A DNA stretch of 25,878 nt from assembly GCA_043799385.1 (NCBI GenBank), contig JAZDNV010000011.1, positions 1 to 25,878 on the forward strand, given 5' to 3'. Within the stretch, counting starts at the first letter, position 1; the number at the start of each line of letters is the position of its first letter. Position numbers and translations under genes: made by a program. Of this stretch, positions 2,671 through 20,564 are shown piece by piece. Source of the stretch: Candidatus Aenigmatarchaeota archaeon (GTDB lineage Archaea > Aenigmatarchaeota > Aenigmatarchaeia > GW2011-AR5). Under the pieces are notes generated by a model. It made no database searches. It worked only from the letters and a program-made list of their open reading frames with translations, and was not told the DNA's origin.

Positions 2671-2952
2671 ATGATGGCTGATTCTGACACGATACGCATT
2701 GGTGAGAATATGTCTCTTGAGAATGAGATGCACAACGAGGTAAGGCGTCTGGAGCGCGAGATTGAAGTTATAGACGAGGAACTGGAAAAGCTGCATAAGA
2801 AAATCCTGCAGCTGATAATGATACGCAAGAAGAATGACCACGACCTCAAAGCGTTGCGGTCGAGCTTCATAGAAGAGCCTTTTGACGAACGCGAATTCCA
2901 GACGACATTAGCAAAGTTATTGGAGAAAGAAGGGATAAAACATCTGGGATGA
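2671..2952 (+). CDS. Small coiled-coil hypothetical protein (~93 aa)
   Basis: AGGTG SD-like motif just upstream of ATG 2671/2674. Heptad pattern VRRLEREIEVIDEELEKLHKKILQL. Confidence 0.7.
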   Translation: MMADSDTIRIGENMSLENEMHNEVRRLEREIEVIDEELEKLHKKILQLIMIRKKNDHDLKALRSSFIEEPFDEREFQTTLAKLLEKEGIKHLG

Positions 2953-3216
2953 TCACTTTTTATACGGAAGGGTAGTTCTTGGTCCCCATTCACTAATCAG
3001 ATTCATTAAAAACATTCCTGGCACTTCTCCGCTATCTACCTGTTTTTGATTAAAACCATACAAACCTAACTGTGTGACAACAAATGCATAGCGGGATTCA
3101 TGCATACCTCTACCTACGGTAGCATCTTGAAAATCATAAATACTCATTTGCACACCAATTAAATCAATAATTTTTCTTGCTTTATCTGTAACTTTCGGCC
3201 TTTCTATCTTTTGCAT
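2953..3216 (-). CDS. Hypothetical protein (87 aa, AT-rich)
   Basis: The ORF fills the gap exactly and its stop abuts the stop of the convergent gene. A TTTAAA lies about 30 nt upstream on the minus strand. No recognisable motif. Confidence 0.55.
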   Translation of the reverse strand: MQKIERPKVTDKARKIIDLIGVQMSIYDFQDATVGRGMHESRYAFVVTQLGLYGFNQKQVDSGEVPGMFLMNLISEWGPRTTLPYKK

Positions 3217-3277
3217 TTCAATCGAAGGTATTGATTATGTTAACCTTTAAATTCGTTTATTTTGTTCGTTCAGATAG

Positions 3278-3856
3278 TCACTTTTTCACACTTTTATGTA
3301 ATCGTTTGTATATGTAATAAACTAAAATTGCAATAACAAAAGCAATTCCTATCGCGATTAATATCGGCGTTTCCAAACCGATTAGCAATGAGCCGAAATA
3401 GCCAAGTATCAGCGCCCGCGGTATCGTTCCGATGAACGTGAACAAAACAAATACCGAAAGGCGCATGCGCAAAATTCCTGCAGTTATTGAGAATACCTTG
3501 TACGGAACGAACGGGATTAGGCGCGAGATTAGTATCGTCCAGTTGCCGTATCTCTTGAACCAGTTGTCCGCTTTCTTTATTCGCTTTTCTGTGACTAAGA
3601 TGTATTTTCCATAGCGGTCGATGAAACGGCGGCCGCCCCTACCTATATAATAGCCGATTATCGAGCCGAGCGTGGAGCCAATCGTGCCGAAAACGACGAT
3701 TTGCCACAGCGGTACGCCAGCCAAGCCTGCAGTGACGAGAACGATTTCGCTAGGTATCGGGACAATCGATGATTCGAGAAACATGCCTATGAGTATGCCC
3801 CAAGGACCATAAGCCGCTACAATAGATAAAACCCAATTTAGCAGTACGTCAATCAT
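3278..3856 (-). CDS. DedA/VTT-family membrane protein
   Basis: LESSIVPIPSEIVL, GSTLGSIIGYYIGR, WFKRYG and SRLIPFV motifs of the DedA family. Confidence 0.93.
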   Translation of the reverse strand: MIDVLLNWVLSIVAAYGPWGILIGMFLESSIVPIPSEIVLVTAGLAGVPLWQIVVFGTIGSTLGSIIGYYIGRGGRRFIDRYGKYILVTEKRIKKADNWFKRYGNWTILISRLIPFVPYKVFSITAGILRMRLSVFVLFTFIGTIPRALILGYFGSLLIGLETPILIAIGIAFVIAILVYYIYKRLHKSVKK

Positions 3857-3911
3857 CTGAGTAATTGATTCCGAGTTTTTAAATCGTTTTTATGGCATTG
3901 CTCTGCACAAT

Positions 3912-3926
3912 AGAAATCTTTATATA
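3912..3926 (+). promoter_or_regulatory. Archaeal BRE/TATA promoter of the GGDEF gene (leaderless)
   Basis: AGAAA at 3912-3916, then TTTATATA at 3919-3926, 25 nt before ATG 3951. Confidence 0.6.
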
Positions 3927-3950
3927 TATGTCACTTGTTAGTAGTTAAAT

Positions 3951-4568
3951 ATGACTAACTTTAATGATATTGACATAAGAAAGTACGACCCTTTGCTGAG
4001 CGAAAATCCTGAATTAGGCCAATATATAAAATATTTGGAAGAGGCGAACAAGCAACTGAAGGAATTGTCGTCCACCGATGAACTGACGGGATTGCCTAAC
4101 TTCAGGCATTTCCAGGAGGTTCTTGACCTTGAGTTCGAGAGGGCAAAACGTCTTGTTGAAAGAGGCGTTAATTACTCATTGTCCCTTGTTCTTTTTGACA
4201 TCGATGATTTCAAGAAGTATAATGACGATTTTGGGCATGACAAAGGAAACAAAGTACTGGAAGGCATGGGACGCATATTGAAAAAAGGCGCGAGAAAAAT
4301 AGACATTCCTTTCAGGTACGGCGGCGAGGAACTAGGAGTGATTCTGCCTTCAGCGGACCTTAAAGGAGCAAAGAAATTCGCTGATGTTCTAAGGAGTAAA
4401 GTGGAAAAGATGGAGGCGGAAAGGACTGTTACCGTTAGCGGAGGGATAGGAACATACCCGAATCATGACATAATAAGCCCGATTGGATTATTCGAAGCAG
4501 CCGACTCCTCATTGTACGTTGCGAAGAATTCGGGCAAGAACAGAATATGCACCTATCTTGACAGGTAA
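3951..4568 (+). CDS. Stand-alone GGDEF-domain dinucleotide (diguanylate) cyclase
   Basis: Coiled-coil helix LEEANKQLKELSST followed by DELTGLPN, then DIDDFKKYND-GH, I-site RKID (115-118), RYGGEEL (GGEEL at 124-128), VTVSGG and AD..LY.AK..GKN. Confidence 0.95.
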   Translation: MTNFNDIDIRKYDPLLSENPELGQYIKYLEEANKQLKELSSTDELTGLPNFRHFQEVLDLEFERAKRLVERGVNYSLSLVLFDIDDFKKYNDDFGHDKGNKVLEGMGRILKKGARKIDIPFRYGGEELGVILPSADLKGAKKFADVLRSKVEKMEAERTVTVSGGIGTYPNHDIISPIGLFEAADSSLYVAKNSGKNRICTYLDR

Positions 4569-4722
4569 TCGGATATTGCGGGTAGTATATCGCAATTTTT
4601 ATCCTACAATTGCAAAAACAATTTAAAACTTTTGCCGCAGGTTAAGTGAAATTTATACTACCATTCCCTCTACGAAGAGGTTTTCTGGGGAGATATTTAA
4701 AGATTTTTATCATATTGCTGAA

Positions 4723-5850
4723 ATGGAAAAAATATCAATAGCATTATGCGGTCCAGGTGATGTGGGGAGTAAATTACTTCAACGTACAATAGACATCCCT
4801 AGATTCGGGTATGTTGTAATTGCTGACAGTAGCGGAGCAACCGCTAAATATGCAAATGGTTCTTATCATTTTTTTGATAAAACTGAATTACAACAGATCA
4901 TTGGTCTTAAACAGAGGGGATACAAGCTTAAGGACTACAAGAATGACAGAACTGTATTTTATAACGAGGTAATCGATGCGATTGGAGAAATACCTTCGAT
5001 AGATGTATTGGTTGATACGACAGATGTTCAGAGTTATCCTATTTTAATGGTAGCAGCAGACAGGGGGCTCCACGTTGTTGGTTCCAATAAACAACCCTAT
5101 GCAGATGTTACATTTTCTCAATACAAAGAGTTGATTGCCAAAGTAGAGGAAAAAGGGTTGATACTTGATGACAGAACAACTGTTAGTGCAAACCTTGGAG
5201 CTCTGCCGAGAGTGAGGGAGTTTGTTGACACTGGTGGCATTTCCCATATTAGAGGATGCCTGAGTGGAACAATGGCTTATATCCCTTATAGGATGAATCA
5301 AGGTTCTAAATTTTCTCAGGGATTGTCAGAAGCAAGAGACAGACAATATACAGAACGGGATGAGCGTGTTGATTTAATAGGCAAAGACTTTGCCAGAAAG
5401 GTTGTTGAAATAGGCAGAGCGGTCGGAGTACCGCTTGAACTCATCTCAATAAAGGTTGAGGAATATCTGCCAAAAGAATTATTAGATATTCCTATTGAGG
5501 AATTCAGAAAAAGGGTTCCAGAACTTGACGATGTGATGGAATCGCGCGTTAAAAAGGCGCAACAAAATGGTTGTGTGCTCAGATTTATTGGTGAACTTGA
5601 TTTTGACAGGAATGTATACGAAGTTGGGTTCAGGGGATTACAAATGGATGACCCGCAAGCCACAACTAAGGGTTGCTGGAACAAGGTAACTATTTATCCT
5701 CGTGCTTGGGAAGGTGAATCAATGAGTGTTGAAGGTCCTGGTGCAGGACTTCCATATACTGCACAGGGTCTGGAAGCAGGACTACATGATATAAGACGAC
5801 TGAAAGAAAGAATAAGTTCAACCAACGAAAGTAGGCCGCTTGCTAAGTAA
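4723..5850 (+). CDS. hom: Homoserine dehydrogenase (monofunctional, ThrA/MetL/Hom6-like domain, divergent)
   Basis: Rossmann GPGDVG, VLVDTT, HVVGSNK, IRGCLSGTMAYI, EA...YTERD...DLIGKDFARK (catalytic Asp/Lys region) and GPGAG..TAQGL. No aspartokinase or ACT domain. Confidence 0.8.
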   Translation: MEKISIALCGPGDVGSKLLQRTIDIPRFGYVVIADSSGATAKYANGSYHFFDKTELQQIIGLKQRGYKLKDYKNDRTVFYNEVIDAIGEIPSIDVLVDTTDVQSYPILMVAADRGLHVVGSNKQPYADVTFSQYKELIAKVEEKGLILDDRTTVSANLGALPRVREFVDTGGISHIRGCLSGTMAYIPYRMNQGSKFSQGLSEARDRQYTERDERVDLIGKDFARKVVEIGRAVGVPLELISIKVEEYLPKELLDIPIEEFRKRVPELDDVMESRVKKAQQNGCVLRFIGELDFDRNVYEVGFRGLQMDDPQATTKGCWNKVTIYPRAWEGESMSVEGPGAGLPYTAQGLEAGLHDIRRLKERISSTNESRPLAK

Positions 5851-7692
5851 TCGCGGCAATGACAACGGCTTGTACGGATATTTTTTCATCTTTTCCTTGA
5901 CGAGCTTCATCAATTCCTCTAATTTCATCTTTTCCGTTTTTCCTGTTTCATGAAACCGCACAGGAAGATCGCCACTCTTCTCTTTCTCGCCGAACACGAT
6001 TATCATCGGCACCCATTCGCTCTCTGCTTCAGCGACTTTTCTCGCAATTCCTTCGGTGCGGTCGTCAATATCGACGCGCGCAAAATCAAACTTATCCGCT
6101 ATTTTTTCTGCATCCTTGATGAACGAATCGTTTACAGGGCACAAACGAATCTGAGTCGGCGATAACCAGAAAGGCAGAGTTGGCGATTTCGGATTTTCGA
6201 TATATGCCTTTTCCAGCAAAGCGTACATCACTCTTTCGATTCCTCCTGAAGGTGATGCATGTAGTATAGTCGGATATTTCCTCTTGTTGTCGCTGTCTGT
6301 AAATTGAATTCCATAACGCTCGGCATTCTCATGGTCAATTTGCACTGTAGAGAGCGCAGACGCTTTGTCTGATGCGTCAATTATGTTAAACTCGAATTTC
6401 GGGTCGAAATAGGCGTAGCGGAAATTCCATATTTCTATCAGCACCGGTTTTTTGACTATTTTCACAAGCGATGCAACGAAGTCTTTGTTGTCCTTCCAGA
6501 AATCTTTCGTGAAGCGTATTGCTGTTTCGTAGTCGCCTATTTCCAAATCATCCATGCATGACATGCACAATTCGAACTGATTTCTAAACTCGTTTCGCGC
6601 GGCTGCAAGGTCTTTGCAAAGCGTGTGCATATCAGGCATAGTGAACGCGCGCAGACGCTTTAACCCAACTAGCTCGCCGGCTTTTTCAAGGCGGAACGAT
6701 TTCGTTAATTCATACATACGTAGCGGTAAATCTTTGTAAGAAATATTCATTCCAGACTTCATCAAGAACTGGCCGAAACATGCGCTGAATCGCAAAAAGA
6801 ATTTCTTCTTCGCGCTCTCGACTACATACTGCCGGGCCGGAAAGCGGTCAAGATAGCTTTTCAGCGCCGGATGCTCGAAATCATACATTACCGGCGACTC
6901 GATTTCCATCGCGCCGTAGTCAATAACTTTTTTCGTAACCCACGTTTCCAGCAGCGATTTTATTAAACGCCCCTTGGGATAAAACCTTAAATTTCCGGGA
7001 TCGCTGCCTTCCTCGTAATCTGCTATTTCCAATTTCTTCATCAATTTTATATGCGGCGGCTCCTTTCCGTAGACGCGCACTTTCTTTATTTCGTAGGAAG
7101 CGAATTTTTCCAGGTTCTTATGCTTCGAGAAATCAAAACCAGCTAATTTGCCATTCTTCATCTCTATGTCATGAAGTTCGCCATTGGGCGTTAGTATGTG
7201 CCACGTTGACTTTACCTTTTCCTCCTCATCTACGGCTTTTGAAACAATCTCCTTGTCTTTTTTTTCGTCGCCGATAATTATTTCTCTCGATAATTCGCTC
7301 AGCGGGTGGCCCTTGCACTTGATTGTAAAGGCTTTGTACCAGCCAAAGGGAGCGCGAGTCACGGAAAAGCCGCTAAGCATAGCCTCGCTCTCTTTCATTA
7401 TTTTCAATGCGATTTCGGGCGAAGCCAAGTCTTTGCTCAGATGCGCGTAAGGATAAAGAACAATCTTTTCCGCTTTTACCTGCGTTGCAACGTCGCTTAT
7501 TTCTGCAACTAATTTTTCACAGGCTTCTTTTACATTCTTTTCATCCGACTTTTCTGCGGCAATGAACACGACTAAGCAATCTTCTATCTTTTTCTTGCCT
7601 GCTGCTTCCTCGGCTGATTTAATCGCCTTCTGCTTTGGCTCGAATTCCAGATAGTCGCTGTGTATTAGCAGTATCTTCATGCAATCACTCAT
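5818..7692 (-). CDS. thrS: Threonyl-tRNA synthetase, archaeal type with N-terminal editing domain
   Basis: MKILLIHSD, LYPYAHLS, RAPFGWYKAFTIKCKGHPLSELSR, Zn ligands RFSAC / MPDMH / ILHAS, SFRLE, GGIERV and a C-terminal anticodon-binding domain. Confidence 0.97.
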   Translation of the reverse strand: MSDCMKILLIHSDYLEFEPKQKAIKSAEEAAGKKKIEDCLVVFIAAEKSDEKNVKEACEKLVAEISDVATQVKAEKIVLYPYAHLSKDLASPEIALKIMKESEAMLSGFSVTRAPFGWYKAFTIKCKGHPLSELSREIIIGDEKKDKEIVSKAVDEEEKVKSTWHILTPNGELHDIEMKNGKLAGFDFSKHKNLEKFASYEIKKVRVYGKEPPHIKLMKKLEIADYEEGSDPGNLRFYPKGRLIKSLLETWVTKKVIDYGAMEIESPVMYDFEHPALKSYLDRFPARQYVVESAKKKFFLRFSACFGQFLMKSGMNISYKDLPLRMYELTKSFRLEKAGELVGLKRLRAFTMPDMHTLCKDLAAARNEFRNQFELCMSCMDDLEIGDYETAIRFTKDFWKDNKDFVASLVKIVKKPVLIEIWNFRYAYFDPKFEFNIIDASDKASALSTVQIDHENAERYGIQFTDSDNKRKYPTILHASPSGGIERVMYALLEKAYIENPKSPTLPFWLSPTQIRLCPVNDSFIKDAEKIADKFDFARVDIDDRTEGIARKVAEAESEWVPMIIVFGEKEKSGDLPVRFHETGKTEKMKLEELMKLVKEKMKKYPYKPLSLPRLLSKRPTFVG

Positions 7693-7758
7693 ACATCACA
7701 AATGTAATTAATTAAATTGGCAGGATATTTTTAAATGCGTTGCAAACATCGTTTTTAT

Positions 7759-8709
7759 ATGCCAGAACTGGGCCAGGACGTAATCAAGAAAATAAGGTCT
7801 TATCCTATTGGTACGACTGAAGTAGAGATTAAGGAGATTCTGTTTAAAGAAAACAACATACACTTGACCGAAGTGGAGATAGGGAAGATAAGATACGGCG
7901 ATGCCATAGACAGGCTTCTAAAAGATAAAACACAATCCACGGGAAAAATGGCTGAAGAAACAATGCCTTACAGAACGGGTTCTGAAACAAGAACCGAGCT
8001 TCCGAGTCAAGAGTCCGGCAAGACAGAATTAATATTGAAACCAAAACCGAAACTGTCAAAGAAGCAGAGACTGGCTGCATATATCGGAATACCTGCTGCT
8101 TTCTTACTTGGAGCATATTTATTCGGGTTTGCTCTTCGCGCTCAACCTGCACCTGTCGTGAATCAGCCTGAAAAACCTGCTGTGGAGGAATATGTACCAG
8201 TAGCAGGCAATCCTCTGGAAATCCCTGTTGGATACAGGAGCATAGGGCTTCAAGAAGCGCGGAAAATGTACCCAAACGTTTTAGAACGCATGGAAAAATA
8301 CAAATTCACATACATAGATTACATCCTTGCCGGCAACATGGACGGCAAAGGAATGGATGATATATTTATGGTAGGAATGAGCAACGCGAACACCGTGCCC
8401 TGCGGAAAAATAATACTAAGCGATGGCGGTACAACAGATTTTAATCTGGGCGGCGATAAAAATTCAGTGCGACTTCTGACTGATATAACGGGTAACGGAA
8501 TTGTGGAGATTGCAAGAGCTTATCCGAAAACTGTGTATGTCGATGAGGCTGGAAATCTTTCTTATCATTTATTCGAAGGCGTTAATCCAAATGGCGTTAC
8601 AAACGTTTTCTCCAATGATTTTATGTACCAGTTCAAGAATAAGTCCATCATAAGAAGAACCGACGGTAAAATGGCGTTATGGAACGGCAGAATTTTTGAG
8701 TACAAATAA
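7759..8709 (+). CDS. Single-pass membrane protein with extracellular FG-GAP-like Ca-binding loops
   Basis: Start probably at ATG 7759. A basic patch KPKPKLSKKQR precedes the TM helix LAAYIGIPAAFLLGAYLFGFAL. Motifs GNMDGKGMDDIF and DITGNGIVEIA follow. Confidence 0.65.
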   Translation: MPELGQDVIKKIRSYPIGTTEVEIKEILFKENNIHLTEVEIGKIRYGDAIDRLLKDKTQSTGKMAEETMPYRTGSETRTELPSQESGKTELILKPKPKLSKKQRLAAYIGIPAAFLLGAYLFGFALRAQPAPVVNQPEKPAVEEYVPVAGNPLEIPVGYRSIGLQEARKMYPNVLERMEKYKFTYIDYILAGNMDGKGMDDIFMVGMSNANTVPCGKIILSDGGTTDFNLGGDKNSVRLLTDITGNGIVEIARAYPKTVYVDEAGNLSYHLFEGVNPNGVTNVFSNDFMYQFKNKSIIRRTDGKMALWNGRIFEYK

Positions 8710-8745: not shown

Positions 8746-10866
8746 ATGGACGAACTGCCACTGCAGAAACATTTTCTTGAAATACTGAAAAATGAAGTAA
8801 AGGAATTCAATCCGCCACAGAAGATGGCATTAAAGAATGGATTACTTGATGGAAAGAACTTGGTTATCGCTTCGCCTACGGCTTCTGGCAAAACAATGAT
8901 TGCAGAAATCGCGATGCTGAACAATTTCTCTAACAGCAGCGGAAAAACGCTCTACCTAGTGCCATTGAAGGCATTAGCCTCTGAGAAATACCACGAGTTC
9001 AAGGAAAAATACGGCAGATACATGAGAATCGCTATGTCTGTCGGCGACCTAGACTCAGGTGACGAGTGGTTAGGCAACTATGACCTCATCATTCTCACAA
9101 ACGAAAAGGCGGACTCGCTATTGCGCCATCAAGTCAGCTGGATGAAATCAGTGAATTTGATAATCGCTGACGAGATTCATCTGTTGAACGACCCTGGCCG
9201 CGGACCTACTCTTGAGATAGTTCTCACCCGGCTAAGGCAGACGACAAAGAGCCAGATTATCGCACTGTCTGCGACGATAAGAAACGCGGACGAGATAGCA
9301 ACATGGTTGAACGCGAATCTAGTGAAGAGCGATTACCGTCCTGTAAAGCTAAACAGCGGCGTATTCTATCCGTACACACTGGCATTCGATGGCAATAGTT
9401 ATGAATTAGAGGGTCGCGGCGATTCAGAGACGCTCTTGAGCGAGGACACGATAAAGAAAGGCAAGCAGGCATTGATATTCGTATCGACGCGCCGCAGCGC
9501 CGAGGCAACAGCGGAAAAGATATCGAAAAAAATCACGTCAAGCAAAGAATTGTCCGCGCTAGCAAAAGACGTGGAAAACGCTTTATCAAGCCCGACAAAG
9601 CAGTGCAGAAGACTCGCAAAAATCGTTGCTCATGGCTGCGCTTTTCATCATGCCGGACTTGTGGCAAAGCAGCGAAAACTAATCGAGGATTCATTCAAGA
9701 GCGGAGCGATAAAAATACTTGCGGCAACGCCGACGCTCGCATTCGGCGTAAATCTGCCAGCATATCGCGTCATAATTCGCGACATGAGGCGATACGATGG
9801 CAATTACGGTTCCTCGTTCATACCGATACTCGAAGTTCAGCAGATGATGGGCCGGGCTGGTCGCCCAAAGTATGACAAGGAAGGTGAAGCGATTTTGATT
9901 GCAAAAAACGAGGATGAAGCGCAATCACTGAGAGAGCGATATATAGACGGCGAGCCTGAGCCGATTTATTCGAAATTATCGATGGACTCGGTCCTGAGAA
10001 TGCATCTATTGGCGCTAATTGCGTCAGACGCAATACAGAGTAGGGAAGACATGGAAAAGTTCTTCTCAAAGACGTTCTTCGCTTTCCAGTATCAGGATAT
10101 CGGCGAAGTCATGTATAAGCTGGATATAATTCTTGAGCAGCTGAAGAACTACAACTTCATAAGAATCGCGGAATCGATAAGCCCCACAAGAATCGGAAAG
10201 CGCGTTGCAGAACTCTATCTCGACCCCGAATCGGCGTACCATATAATAAAGAATCTTACTGCGAAGGACGACATGGAACTGACGATGATGATAAACGAAT
10301 GCATCGAAATGCATCCTTTGCTGAGGCCGAAGAGCGGCGACTGCTTAGAGGAAGAGCTGGCGAACTACTCGCTGCAGCAGCCGGACGTCTGGGACCTTGG
10401 CTACGAGGATTTCATGGCTGCTTTCAAGACGTCGCTGATGCTTCGCGACTGGATGGCAGAATACGGCGAGGATAAATTGCTCGATAACTATGGCATTGCT
10501 CCAGGCGAACTTTATAATAAGATAACCAACGCAGAGTGGATGCTCTACTCTGCGAAAGAGCTGGCGATACTGCTAAACAAGAATGAAATCGCCAAATCGC
10601 TGAAGAAAATGCAGGTCAGGGTAAAGCACGGCGTCCGCGAAGAGCTACTGCAGTTAGTGAAGTTAAGGAACATCGGCCGCGTGCGCGCGAGAATGCTCTA
10701 CCGCAAAGGCATAAAAACCGCGAGCGATATAAAGAATACGCCAGAAGCAACGATAGCAAAAATACTCGGCCCGAAGATTGCCAAGCAGCTTAAAGAAGTT
10801 TTGGAGGAATCATTAGACGAAAAGATGGGCAGGATAAAGAAACGCAGACATGGGTCCGTGGTTTAG
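8746..10866 (+). CDS. hel308: Hel308 (Ski2-like SF2) DNA helicase
   Basis: ASPTASGKT, PLKALASEK, DEIH, RGPTLE, LSATI, FHHAGL, ATPTLAFGVNLPA, QMMGRAGRP and C-terminal HhH with IGRVRARMLY. Confidence 0.96.
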   Translation: MDELPLQKHFLEILKNEVKEFNPPQKMALKNGLLDGKNLVIASPTASGKTMIAEIAMLNNFSNSSGKTLYLVPLKALASEKYHEFKEKYGRYMRIAMSVGDLDSGDEWLGNYDLIILTNEKADSLLRHQVSWMKSVNLIIADEIHLLNDPGRGPTLEIVLTRLRQTTKSQIIALSATIRNADEIATWLNANLVKSDYRPVKLNSGVFYPYTLAFDGNSYELEGRGDSETLLSEDTIKKGKQALIFVSTRRSAEATAEKISKKITSSKELSALAKDVENALSSPTKQCRRLAKIVAHGCAFHHAGLVAKQRKLIEDSFKSGAIKILAATPTLAFGVNLPAYRVIIRDMRRYDGNYGSSFIPILEVQQMMGRAGRPKYDKEGEAILIAKNEDEAQSLRERYIDGEPEPIYSKLSMDSVLRMHLLALIASDAIQSREDMEKFFSKTFFAFQYQDIGEVMYKLDIILEQLKNYNFIRIAESISPTRIGKRVAELYLDPESAYHIIKNLTAKDDMELTMMINECIEMHPLLRPKSGDCLEEELANYSLQQPDVWDLGYEDFMAAFKTSLMLRDWMAEYGEDKLLDNYGIAPGELYNKITNAEWMLYSAKELAILLNKNEIAKSLKKMQVRVKHGVREELLQLVKLRNIGRVRARMLYRKGIKTASDIKNTPEATIAKILGPKIAKQLKEVLEESLDEKMGRIKKRRHGSVV

Positions 10867-10975
10867 TTTGGTAGAATCCAGGCTTCGGGTGAGCTTTTCT
10901 TAAAAAGAAAATCTCAATCAAAAGAAGACAAAAACGGAAAAGCCTGTGACCTGAGTTCAAATCTCAGCGGACCCA
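10852..10975 (+). tRNA. tRNA-Pro(CGG) with 51-nt intron at canonical 37/38 (intron 10890-10940)
   Basis: Acceptor GGGTCCG/CGGACCC plus A, D-stem GTTT/GAAT, anticodon stem CAGGC/GCCTG, anticodon CGG at 10886-10888, T-arm CTGAG-TTCAAAT-CTCAG. The BHB central helix is TTCG/CGGA with a 3' AAA bulge. Confidence 0.93.
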
Positions 10976-15566: not shown

Positions 15567-17444
15567 TTATTCTACAATAACTGGTATGCGGTTGGAGAAG
15601 TCCTTCATCATGTCGTGTATCTCGTTTATCCGTCTGTCCAGGTAATTCACCCTTGCTGACAGCGGTATCGCGGACTGATCAGGACTATACGGTGTCTTCT
15701 GCTTTATTTCCTTCAGGCTGCGCTCGAATTCTTCCCTCGTGACCATGTTCGGCAAGCGTTTGTCCAGGGCTCTTGCAAAGTCTTCAAGGTTCTCGGCAAA
15801 GAATCTCTTTGCAGCTGAATCCAGCTTTCCTTCTAGGTTCTGCACAGTCTTCCTCTGCGCGAGTATCTCCTCTCTTATCTTCTTCATCTCGCTTAGGTCA
15901 AGAGTCTTCGAGAACTCCTTGCTCTCCATCTCTATTTTTAATCTTAATTCATCAATCTTTGAGTGCAATTCTCTGGTCTTGGCAGAAAGCTCTTTTTCAA
16001 TCTTGTCTTCTATTGTGCGGTACGGCTGCTCTGACCTCGCGCGGATATCTTGCATCGCCTTCTCGAGCGACACTCTTTCCGCGCTCTCTTCGTCAAGAGC
16101 GCTCTTGATTGAATTGACTTCCTGCACGGCATTCTCGAACAGCATCATCTTGTTGCTGAGGTCCTGCATCGCCTTCTCGAGCGACATCCTCTGCGTTGTT
16201 TCCTCTTCCAGTCTTTGCAGCAACTCTTTGCTTGGCTGGCGCTGGAAGCCGTAGCTTACACCAGTTTTTTCAACGGTGTCCATCCTGCCGGAAAGCTCTT
16301 TTACTGACTTCTCGAGCAGCGTTTCCTTTGTCGCTTCTCGTCCGAGCGTCTGCCTCATCTGCATCATTTTTGAGACATCGCCCTCTATTGACGATACTTT
16401 TTCATGCAAAGCCTCGAGATTATTTTCAATCGACGTCCTTCTCGAAATCTCCATGTCAACGCTCTTTTTCAGTGAAGAGACATCAGCCGTGTTTTTACTG
16501 AATTTATCGTATTCCTCAACCCGCTCTTCCAGAGAAAGCAATTTGGTATCCAGCGAATCCTTGACCGAATCCAGTTTCTCGAATCGCGATTTGAATTTTC
16601 CTTCCAGCGTCTGTATCCTGCTCTCCATGTCCTTTCTTATGAAATCGACCTCGCGAATATTATTCTTTACCTTGCTGTCCACTTCGTTTTTCATGTCCTC
16701 GATTCTTTCAGCGTCAGCGCTTATCTTTTCCTCAATCACCTTCATCCTCGAAATGAGCGCGTCAGCTTTTTCGACGTTGACCTCTGCATCGCCTATTTTC
16801 GATACAAGGGTGTCCCTTTCAACCATGACCCTGTCAAACTCGCCCTTCAGTGCTTTGAGTCTCTCGTACTCGCTGCTTAATTCCCTTTTCGCAGTGTTGA
16901 ACCTGTCTATATAATCCTGAATTTCTTTTTTCGAGATTTTGCCTGAACTCTGCATGGCATCCTTTATCTTGTTCATCGATTCCTCTATCGAGAGGATTTT
17001 CCTGCTCTGCATGTCAACAGTTTTCATCGAGTTCATTATATCGGGCGGTATAGAAACGCCTGATTTCATCTTCTCTTCTATACCAACCAGTCTATTCTCC
17101 AAATCAGGGCCGATGATTGGCATCGCAGGAATTGGCTTTGCTTTAACGTCGCTCTCCAATCTCGCTAGCCGCTGCTCCATATCAGTTGATATAACCGGCA
17201 CTGACGGTGCTGCTACAGCCTTTGGCGCAGGTGGAGCTTCCTTTATTTTCGTATACTCGACCTGCAGAAGAAGTAGTAAATCCTCAAGCTCATGCATTCG
17301 TTCTTCGACTTTTTCAGGCAGGCCTTCTGCTGGCTTTGACTCAAAAGTGGTAAATTTCTTCTCTATCTCAAAGAAGTTCTCCTTGCTGCGATTCTCCAAC
17401 TTTATCAGCCTTCCTTCGAGGTCCTGGAGCTTGGCGTCTACCAT
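15567..17444 (-). CDS. Long coiled-coil protein (625 aa) with internal 38-aa repeats
   Basis: E/K/L-rich heptads throughout, Pro-rich linkers near the N-terminus, no TM helix and no ATPase head. Ends in RIPVIVE. Confidence 0.85.
   Translation of the reverse strand: MVDAKLQDLEGRLIKLENRSKENFFEIEKKFTTFESKPAEGLPEKVEERMHELEDLLLLLQVEYTKIKEAPPAPKAVAAPSVPVISTDMEQRLARLESDVKAKPIPAMPIIGPDLENRLVGIEEKMKSGVSIPPDIMNSMKTVDMQSRKILSIEESMNKIKDAMQSSGKISKKEIQDYIDRFNTAKRELSSEYERLKALKGEFDRVMVERDTLVSKIGDAEVNVEKADALISRMKVIEEKISADAERIEDMKNEVDSKVKNNIREVDFIRKDMESRIQTLEGKFKSRFEKLDSVKDSLDTKLLSLEERVEEYDKFSKNTADVSSLKKSVDMEISRRTSIENNLEALHEKVSSIEGDVSKMMQMRQTLGREATKETLLEKSVKELSGRMDTVEKTGVSYGFQRQPSKELLQRLEEETTQRMSLEKAMQDLSNKMMLFENAVQEVNSIKSALDEESAERVSLEKAMQDIRARSEQPYRTIEDKIEKELSAKTRELHSKIDELRLKIEMESKEFSKTLDLSEMKKIREEILAQRKTVQNLEGKLDSAAKRFFAENLEDFARALDKRLPNMVTREEFERSLKEIKQKTPYSPDQSAIPLSARVNYLDRRINEIHDMMKDFSNRIPVIVE
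16051..16186. repeat. 22-bp exact direct repeat within the coiled-coil gene (114-nt spacing)
   Basis: TGCATCGCCTTCTCGAGCGACA at 16051-16072 and 16165-16186. It encodes SLEKAMQ twice on the minus strand. Confidence 0.9.
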
Positions 17445-19349: not shown

Positions 19350-20564
19350 TTAAGGTAGAACGATTTCCCGTATTCTTCTTTGGGATGTTTCTATATCTTC
19401 CATGCCTGTATTCAGTATATAAACTTCTGTTGTGTCGAACAATCTTCTGAAAAATCCTTCTTGAGCCTTATTATCCTTGTTCAAAAGATAGGGGTTGTAC
19501 CAGGGTTCGTAATCAAATTGTCCCCATTTTTCCTTTGGAGCTGACCCAGGGCCAAGCATAACCTTTCCTTCTTTCAATATCTCTATTGCCTCATCCGAAG
19601 AAAGTTTTTCAATGGGTTTTGATTCCCTGTCTCTTCTGAACAAAAACACATACTTTGCCTCACATTCATGAATAAATCTATCTGGTCCGTGAATAGCTTC
19701 TGGTCTCAGAATTGCTCGGGAATTTCCAAAGCCCCAATAACATTTCTCAGCTTCTGCATCAAAAACGCACTCCCTGACGTTATCTTTTACTCTCTCTTTA
19801 CAGGCATCGTTTTGGCATTTTTCTTTATCGTCGACTACGTTTTCTAGTTCACATTTAGGAAATAAGTCTCTTAACAACGGATTATGCTCTGCCGCATCTG
19901 TCCTTATATAAAACTTTCTTTCTGATATTGTTGCCACTGATTTTTTGTCCCTCTCCTCGACAAAAAGCCAATCGTCACTGTGTATTCTAGTATCAGGCAA
20001 TTCCAATAGCTTATAGCAATGCGTGCTTTTTCCAGTGCCTGTAGGTGCTATCATAATTATGCCTTTATCGCTGATGGTGACACAGGAGCCATGAATGGAG
20101 TGGATTCCTTTTTCTTCAAGAATATCTGCTGCCAGGCCTAACGCCCAAGACTTGCACTGACCGTAATAGTCCGTATTCATGAAAACAGCTGTTTTCAATT
20201 CGCTGCAATACCATGCAAACGGCTTTTGGTCGCTCACGCCAAAAATTGCATATATGGTCCCGTGCGGTTTTTTATCCTCTTCAGCCGGAAACCAATTGGA
20301 AACCCAGAAATCATATAGATGCGGAGAAGTCGTTTGAAGCTGCACAATGACACGGTTATCCTCTGTTCCGCTATCGCTTTTTCTGACATTTTTTGGATTT
20401 ATATATGCGTTCCAGAGTTCAAGGCTGTGAAAATTCAACTCATTGATATTATACTTAGCAAACTCGATTAATCCTCTCATCTGTTCCGGGCTTGTTTTTT
20501 TATTGCTGTCTACTCTTCTGGAAGGGTCTGTATGATAATTGGCCCATCTGTCGTAGACGCTCAT
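19350..20564 (-). CDS. PEP carboxykinase/HPr kinase-like P-loop protein of unknown function
   Basis: YYGQCKS, IHGSCV, APTGTGKST, IHSDDW, NSRA and VFLFRRD follow the order of PEPCK/HPrK nucleotide-binding motifs. Confidence 0.75.
   Translation of the reverse strand: MSVYDRWANYHTDPSRRVDSNKKTSPEQMRGLIEFAKYNINELNFHSLELWNAYINPKNVRKSDSGTEDNRVIVQLQTTSPHLYDFWVSNWFPAEEDKKPHGTIYAIFGVSDQKPFAWYCSELKTAVFMNTDYYGQCKSWALGLAADILEEKGIHSIHGSCVTISDKGIIMIAPTGTGKSTHCYKLLELPDTRIHSDDWLFVEERDKKSVATISERKFYIRTDAAEHNPLLRDLFPKCELENVVDDKEKCQNDACKERVKDNVRECVFDAEAEKCYWGFGNSRAILRPEAIHGPDRFIHECEAKYVFLFRRDRESKPIEKLSSDEAIEILKEGKVMLGPGSAPKEKWGQFDYEPWYNPYLLNKDNKAQEGFFRRLFDTTEVYILNTGMEDIETSQRRIREIVLP

Follow-up and report, generated by a model that had tools for sequence, protein, structure and literature searches.

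Reviews up to 2023 record cyclic diguanosine monophosphate (c-di-GMP) as not detected in archaea, and its enzymes as almost exclusively bacterial (PMC10249747, PMC5847659). Sidorov et al. (Mol Microbiol, Sept 2026; PMC13725321) now describe GGDEF proteins of archaeal isolates along with 20 proteins encoded by metagenome-assembled genomes (MAGs), the latter "mainly from DPANN and class II" clades; several are short and comprise a GGDEF domain only. Seven MAG proteins were assayed there, and the Vc2 riboswitch reporter gave a positive result with three. Here we analyse a GGDEF gene of Candidatus Aenigmatarchaeota archaeon (Aenigmatarchaeota, DPANN), a very small archaeon of the symbiont type, carried on contig JAZDNV010000011.1 of assembly GCA_043799385.1. 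The whole contig of 25,878 bp was analysed and is called the window; the genome is 786 kb in 31 contigs, 91% complete, with 0.08% contamination. An initial annotation, made from the letters of the window, had regarded GGDEF signalling as uncharacterised in archaea, a view made outdated by these reporter results with DPANN GGDEF-only proteins.

Our preferred reading, in which we place rather better than even confidence, is that this single-copy gene is native to its Aenigmatarchaeota genome and specifies a minimal nucleotide cyclase, formed by a short coiled-coil stalk and one GGDEF domain. The protein is most likely a product-inhibited dinucleotide cyclase. The gene itself is resident in the archaeal chromosome and is not a chimera. 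Whether archaea use c-di-GMP at all is a question only now opening to experiment, and this protein, with 205 residues, no input domain, and the place of the only recognisable cyclic-dinucleotide cyclase in a 0.8-Mb genome, makes a clean test object. The features of the locus are as follows:

3912-3926, forward strand: predicted archaeal promoter, with a purine-rich element AGAAA (3912-3916) resembling the transcription factor B recognition element (BRE), and the TATA box TTTATATA (3919-3926)

3951-4568, forward strand: GGDEF coding sequence, stop codon included; stand-alone protein of 205 residues

4008-4073, forward strand: N-terminal stalk helix, residues 20-41 (22 residues) in the AlphaFold2 model

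4071-4544, forward strand: GGDEF catalytic domain, residues 41-198, Pfam PF00990

4248-4250, forward strand: codon AAC for Asn100, at the position of the guanine-specifying Asp (D344 in PleD; Ser348 in Hypr GacA)

4293-4304, forward strand: I-site RxxD, R115-K-I-D118, aligned with the RSSD of WspR, five residues before the signature

4320-4334, forward strand: signature loop GGEEL, G124-G-E-E-L128, in place of GGEEF

4575-4600, forward strand: terminator-like hairpin of seven pairs with a loop of eight, then TTTTT, starting 7 nt after the stop; a consensus match only

The fold is that of a class I (PleD/WspR-type) GGDEF domain. The PF00990 match (E-value 2e-35) runs over profile positions 2-161 of 161 and thus covers the full-length domain; TIGR00254 matches at 3.2e-40. 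In an AlphaFold2 model built from a 52-row alignment (mean pLDDT 93.6), residues 20-41 form one long helix that leads into the GGDEF fold, and confidence is low (pLDDT 62-74) for residues 1-20. Foldseek retrieves solved cyclases, with E-values down to 7.5e-20, and its top solved matches include 3i5c (rank 1) and 6ttr (TM-scores 0.81/0.87). By sequence, the nearest solved chains are the active cyclases WspR, DgcR, and PleD (1e-27 to 1e-22), with 1.5e-27 to 1.6e-26 and about 36% identity for WspR and 1.5e-22 for PleD. PADLOC assigned neither the protein nor any of its four neighbours to a defence system.

The catalytic machinery is nearly complete. In the alignment to WspR, the metal-binding Asp motif is D83-I-D85, and KxxND is K88 with N91-D92; the DxLT turn, D43-x-L-T46, lies within D43-E-L-T-G-L-P-N50. 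Also kept are K192, R198, and the catalytic Glu pair E126/E127. The metal, phosphate, and transition-state residues (D327, K332, E370, K442, and R446 in PleD) and the DxLT turn are therefore all present, with roles taken from the PleD-type residues listed in PMC7288161 and PMC12943098. Among the 31 homologues of the phylum, 27 retain RxxD and nearly all keep the signature. Every motif named in the initial annotation (DID, KxxND, GGEEL, RKID, DxLTGLxN, and the short helix) is borne out by sequence, WspR alignment, and model. The protein also has no sensor domain, as had been noted: the stop-to-stop frame spans 207 codons, an in-frame TAG (3942-3944) stands two codons upstream of the ATG, and the upstream gene, of the DedA/VTT family (3278-3856), is divergent, so the frame hides no N-terminal sensor.

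The stalk helix has the heptad pattern a-x-x-d-e-x-x (L22/Y25,I26; L29/A32,N33; L36/L39,S40), its last "e" position lying three residues before D43 of the DxLT turn. WspR and DgcR are described as having coiled-coil linkers with an equal, "slippery" heptad register; in DgcB and DgcR the linker is the dimerising, register-setting element, and fusion to GCN4 in the active register is said to give high activity (PMC8041772). Moreover, phmmer aligns residues 27-40 with the zipper part of 3i5c, the GCN4-zipper-WspR fusion. Because of this shared register and alignment, dimerisation through the stalk is the likely way in which the two active sites meet. A homodimer prediction from two copies of the protein scored 0.26, against a mark of 0.42, and speaks neither for nor against such pairing.

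How does the protein compare with its closest described counterparts? Like the DPANN GGDEF-only proteins of Sidorov et al., it is encoded on an archaeal contig with archaeal flanks, extends only briefly N-terminal to its GGDEF domain, and has a conserved signature together with an I-site; a cluster closest to WspR/AdrA is reported among theirs, and WspR is likewise the closest solved relative here. The main text of that paper makes no mention of Aenigmatarchaeota, GGEEL, or PilZ, and at the base-reading residue it remarks solely that the Hypr serine is missing, with no word of Asn (PMC13725321). WspR of Pseudomonas aeruginosa (3bre) shares the GGEE-type signature, the RxxD five residues upstream, and the heptad register; it differs in having a REC input domain, Asp at the base site, and Phe in the signature, where the present protein has no input domain, Asn, and Leu. 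Caulobacter DgcB (6ttr) and Leptospira DgcR (6zxb/6zxm) share the helix-plus-GGDEF architecture, but their linkers relay a signal from an upstream domain, whereas here only about 20 poorly modelled residues precede the helix. The Hypr enzymes GacA/GSU1658 and Bd0367 set a precedent, for in them the base-reading residue is naturally replaced while the rest of the GGDEF domain is intact. They carry Ser or Thr with GGDE[F/Y] only, and the combination of Ser with GGEEF is inactive (PMC6456294); with Asn and GGEEL, the present protein is not a member of that group.

A mechanism can be proposed. Two chains would pair through the heptad helix, which would bring their GGDEF domains, each loaded with a nucleoside triphosphate, face to face for synthesis of a cyclic dinucleotide. 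This would most likely be c-di-GMP, with Asn100 leaving rate and base specificity open, and it would bind the RxxD I-site and switch the enzyme off. Since there is no sensor domain, output would be set mainly by transcription and product inhibition.

Transcription of the gene appears to follow the ordinary habit of this genome. The TATA box ends 24 nt before the ATG; upstream of 688 open reading frames (ORFs) genome-wide, the commonest distance between the end of a TATA-like motif and the ATG is 20-24 nt (37 of 115 occurrences). The BRE/TATA element of the initial annotation is thus present as AGAAA and TTTATATA, at the genome's modal spacing. A spacing of 24 nt points to a leaderless or nearly leaderless mRNA, and no Shine-Dalgarno-like run was seen 5' of the ATG. 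With the hairpin behind the stop, the gene looks monocistronic. A perfect sigma-70 consensus, TTGACA-17-TATAAT (12/12), occurs within the coding sequence (4195-4223, forward strand), where it arises from the codons of the conserved FDIDDFKKYN motif; it is probably due to chance, and could yield internal transcripts in Escherichia coli.

Several lines of evidence place the gene in the archaeal chromosome. As the initial annotation stated, it sits among archaeal core genes, with archaeal genes on both flanks: those around it include threonyl-tRNA synthetase (ThrRS) with the archaea-specific editing domain, Hel308 with archaeal domain 4, glycerol-1-phosphate dehydrogenase, geranylgeranylglyceryl phosphate (GGGP) synthase, aTrm56, Taw1/Taw2, an A24 peptidase, and an exosortase-family protein. 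The ThrRS, encoded two genes away, shares 56-71% identity with the 119 relatives that match it best; among 120 rows listed, the 14 named by organism comprise 12 from Aenigm(at)archaeota, two labelled "archaeon", and none from other phyla. Composition is typical: GC content is 0.433 (genome ORFs, 0.436 +/- 0.034), GC at third codon positions is 0.483 (0.493 +/- 0.068), and the codon score falls at the 79th percentile of 700 ORFs. The closest database protein to the GGDEF domain reaches 51-52% identity at most, which argues against a recent donor.

Homologues are spread through the phylum. A protein search found them in 10 of 40 related genomes, with 47% identity at best. A family search found GGDEF in 61 of 371 phylum genomes, about one in six. 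By subset, it is present in 22 of 98 genomes of high quality, in 43 of 170 genera, and in 11 of the 43 other family genomes. With few exceptions a genome has a single copy, in frames of about 200-300 residues, and one- and two-contig genomes carry it too.

Synteny in related archaeal genomes was a check that the initial annotation had proposed. In a genome from another family of the same order (G033), the GGDEF gene lies directly beside ThrRS (58-59% identical to that of the window); Taw2-Taw1-aTrm56 lie 2-5 kb off and a HAD hydrolase about 10 kb off, so that six of 25 window genes occur within 16 kb. The orientation of GGDEF relative to ThrRS differs between the two genomes, and in the window a homoserine dehydrogenase intervenes. 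This gene (4723-5850, forward strand) begins just 3' of GGDEF and overlaps the ThrRS 3' end by 33 nt. Its best match (2e-46) is to the C-terminal half of the bifunctional aspartate kinase/homoserine dehydrogenase I of bacteria, with archaeal homoserine dehydrogenase models scoring far lower, and it has weak matches in only four of the 43 other family genomes; apparently it was acquired separately and came to lie between GGDEF and ThrRS by insertion. The shared neighbourhood, the differing orientation, and the nearly family-unique intervening gene together suggest an old position beside ThrRS, with later rearrangement and insertion. That the gene is a resident archaeal one, as had been claimed, is thus indicated by its composition, the spacing of its promoter, the archaeal genes that flank it, its homologues in 60 of the 370 other phylum genomes, and an orthologue beside ThrRS in another family.

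Public reads bear on the same point. In a DNA run from groundwater, possibly the source sample, contigs of about 200 bp (depth 2-4) tile parts of 2751-7261; they cover 4070-4354 and 4478-4662, and no listed piece bridges 3856-3951. In the contigs of a related strain, the only two differences seen, at 4004 and 4298, are at third positions and are read as synonymous. A groundwater contig joins 2961 to 3336 through 37 other letters, indicating a related strain that lacks the 87-codon ORF at 2953-3216; across the same gap (2962-3335), the DedA 3' end differs in that strain.

Several observations weigh against the reading of the protein as a native cyclase. The first concerns the base-reading site, GHDKGN here versus GHVAGD in WspR; the active site is not fully canonical. 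Of the guanine-binding pair (Asn335 and Asp344 in PleD), the former is represented by Asn91 and the latter is replaced by Asn100. Asp344 of PleD, like Ser348 of the cGAMP-forming Hypr GacA, pairs with the Watson-Crick face of guanine (PMC6456294, PMC7288161, PMC12943098), and a review lists PleD D327, N335, and D344 as reported essential for activity (PMC7288161). Asp fills this column in 121 of 129 relatives in our first alignment, in 27 of the 31 phylum homologues, and in 142 of the 149 nearest representatives at 50% identity. Asn appears in six, four, and six members of these sets, respectively, and in three of 119 word-search hits. The four phylum forms come from G000 (the genome carrying the window), G010, G033 (the genome with GGDEF beside ThrRS), and G339. 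All Asn forms retain RxxD and the signature, and two (P0154 and P0175) pair Asn with GGEEL.

The second concerns the signature, whose fifth residue is Leu, not Phe. Leu stands there in 13 of 129, four of 31, and eight of 149 sequences of the same three alignments. Our literature search found no activity data for the GGEEL variant and no assay of an Asn-form GGDEF; the founding Hypr paper lay outside this survey. In the initial annotation the cyclase was "apparently active". All other catalytic residues indeed are kept, but Asn100 had been overlooked; because it replaces the guanine-reading Asp, and because the signature is GGEEL, activity is plausible and not secure. Nor did any of the seven MAG proteins tested by Sidorov et al. 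prove consistently active across all three of their assays (PMC13725321). Among the public read sets listed with the GGDEF locus, none is an RNA run.

The third concerns partners. Profiles for EAL (PF00563), HD-GYP-type HD_5 (PF13487), PilZ (PF07238), MshEN (PF05157), and YajQ (PF04461) found no match in the 91%-complete genome, and positive controls gave matches in each of these searches. The initial annotation had seen no EAL, HD-GYP, or PilZ partner in the window and had called for a genome search that included MshEN; the absence extends to the genome. A scan of the 25.9-kb window found no c-di-GMP riboswitch. With neither the known phosphodiesterases nor the known receptors found, no complete c-di-GMP pathway can be drawn for this genome. 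Also lacking in the same genome, in a search whose positive control likewise gave matches, is any match to a DAC-type cyclase for cyclic diadenosine monophosphate (c-di-AMP); as GGDEF occurs once, the protein described here is the genome's only recognisable cyclic-dinucleotide cyclase.

Sidorov et al. name phosphodiesterase co-occurrence and receptor identity as open questions, and our census of the phylum addresses the former (PMC13725321). EAL occurs in two of 371 genomes, one of them with 5% contamination; HD_5 in 23; PilZ in three; and DAC in 25, with 17 above cut-off. Among the 61 GGDEF-positive genomes, eight have HD_5, one has EAL, and one has PilZ, leaving 52 without a known phosphodiesterase domain and 60 without PilZ. 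(The lists were compared by hand, and the genomes are related and many incomplete, so these are counts and not tests.) It follows that sensing and turnover in this phylum must be new, or that the proteins act otherwise. If the protein is a cyclase, degradation and sensing would fall to proteins outside the EAL, HD-GYP, PilZ, and MshEN families. Candidates, possible as degraders or targets but none of them specific, would be the genome's single DHH-DHHA1 protein (339 residues, contig C11), its four generic HD proteins, and its type-IV-filament/secretion ATPases, of which there are five matches (frames of 419-743 residues on contigs C11, C19, and C25; L162-L166), none with a recognisable MshEN domain. 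The idea that GGDEF replaces DAC was rejected: the two are not distributed in a complementary fashion, and four of the 17 DAC-positive genomes also have GGDEF. One genome (G167; L104, L122, L124, L125) shows GGDEF matches and EAL matches, three of each, and two of these are neighbours on shared contigs; at 5% contamination, they represent either bacterial contamination or, for this phylum, a genuine and complete c-di-GMP module.

The fourth concerns neighbours and descent. Across nine relatives no common partner gene stands beside GGDEF, with two exceptions: G033 has ThrRS there, and G003 and G004 encode a small membrane protein; the genome of the closest homologue (G010) has no neighbours in common with the window. 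Domain trees, which the initial annotation had recommended, were built with FastTree (286 rows) and IQ-TREE in quick mode (100 rows) from 165-168 columns, omitting sequences with fewer than 130 or 95 aligned positions, respectively, and retaining in the smaller tree only the 70 best-scoring database hits. Both are star-like. The phylum GGDEFs do not form one clade in the best trees, and well-supported branches force only two origins (286 rows) or one (100 rows). The trees do not separate inheritance with loss from repeated acquisition.

In G004 (L138, 7506-7874, reverse strand) and G003 (L139, 9303-9734, forward strand), the homologous small multi-pass membrane protein is encoded directly 3' of GGDEF; it is the only recurring GGDEF neighbour seen besides ThrRS, and one to two genes off there is a gene for a Na+/H+ exchanger. 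In G010 (L135, 6170-7084, reverse strand) a RimK-type ATP-grasp gene lies two genes 3' of GGDEF, with one Pfam-less ORF between; this was seen in one genome only. Pseudomonas RimK reportedly binds c-di-GMP. The roles in attachment or on a host suggested in the initial annotation receive no support from the gene context.

What else might the protein be? Best placed among the alternatives, and still unlikely, is a dead or weak GGDEF domain that serves as a nucleotide-binding receptor or scaffold, holding GTP, or a cyclic dinucleotide at its I-site, as degenerate bacterial GGDEFs do. The loss of an Asp reported essential and the GGEEL signature are what one would expect of such a protein, as is a genome in which neither turnover partner nor receptor was found; several archaeal proteins in PMC13725321 gave catalysis-independent phenotypes. 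On the other side stand the retained metal-, phosphate-, and transition-state residues and both catalytic Glu residues. Degenerate GGDEF domains usually lose several catalytic residues. Furthermore, the genome has no other recognisable cyclase to supply a ligand (GGDEF occurs once, DAC not at all), and many relatives that are canonical in other respects have Leu or Ile as the fifth signature residue.

Somewhat more doubtful is a re-specified cyclase, whose GHxxGN site would take ATP besides or instead of GTP and so yield the 3',3'-linked cyclic dinucleotide of GMP and AMP (3',3'-cGAMP) or c-di-AMP. Asn100 lies exactly at the base-reading position, and a carboxamide can pair with N1/N6 of adenine. 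A single residue here, Asp changed to Ser, switches specificity in the Hypr enzymes (PMC6456294). The Asn is kept in the four diverged phylum forms (35-47% identity) with RxxD and signature intact, recurs among the nearest database relatives (six of 149 and three of 119, two of these with GGEEL), and in this genome occurs where no DAC-type c-di-AMP cyclase was matched. Yet Asn equals Asp in length and could still read guanine, and the defining Hypr features, Ser or Thr with GGDE[F/Y] only, are missing. The 100-row tree does not unite the four Asn forms; DAC and GGDEF are not complementary in the phylum; and the literature search, which did not include the founding Hypr paper, produced no published assay of an Asn-form enzyme. 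Asn at this site offers a cheap and direct test of variation in GGDEF specificity.

A bolder form of this idea, and a long shot, is that GHxxGN GGDEFs constitute an unrecognised natural specificity class, in which use of ATP would lead to cGAMP, c-di-AMP, or a mix, and a lone cyclase would feed an unknown archaeal receptor. If so, the receptor might be a type-IV-filament ATPase or an ion transporter, or the signal might pass to a host cell.

Least credible, to the point of being negligible, is bacterial contamination or a chimeric assembly that would place the gene outside the archaeal chromosome: GGDEF is overwhelmingly bacterial, the best 80 loci in a species-genome collection are all bacterial (many phyla, 35-48% identity), the next gene, too, belongs to the bacterial ThrA type and is close to unique within the family, and the public contigs are too short to span the gene's 5' boundary, but these points yield to genome-typical composition and codon use, an archaeal promoter at modal spacing, archaeal genes on either side within one 25.9-kb contig of a genome with 0.08% contamination, the lack of any database protein more than 51-52% identical, homologues in 60 other phylum genomes (single-contig ones included), and the orthologue that adjoins ThrRS in G033.

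Elsewhere in the window, three large ORFs have no Pfam match: 15567-17444 (reverse strand, 625 residues), 19350-20564 (reverse strand, 404 residues), and 7735-8709 (forward strand, 324 residues). The first adjoins the exosortase-family gene, and may be what the initial annotation called "adhesin-like". Finally, a tRNA match of 124 nt (10852-10975, forward strand), presumably intron-bearing, starts within the last codons of the Hel308 ORF, which ends at 10866.

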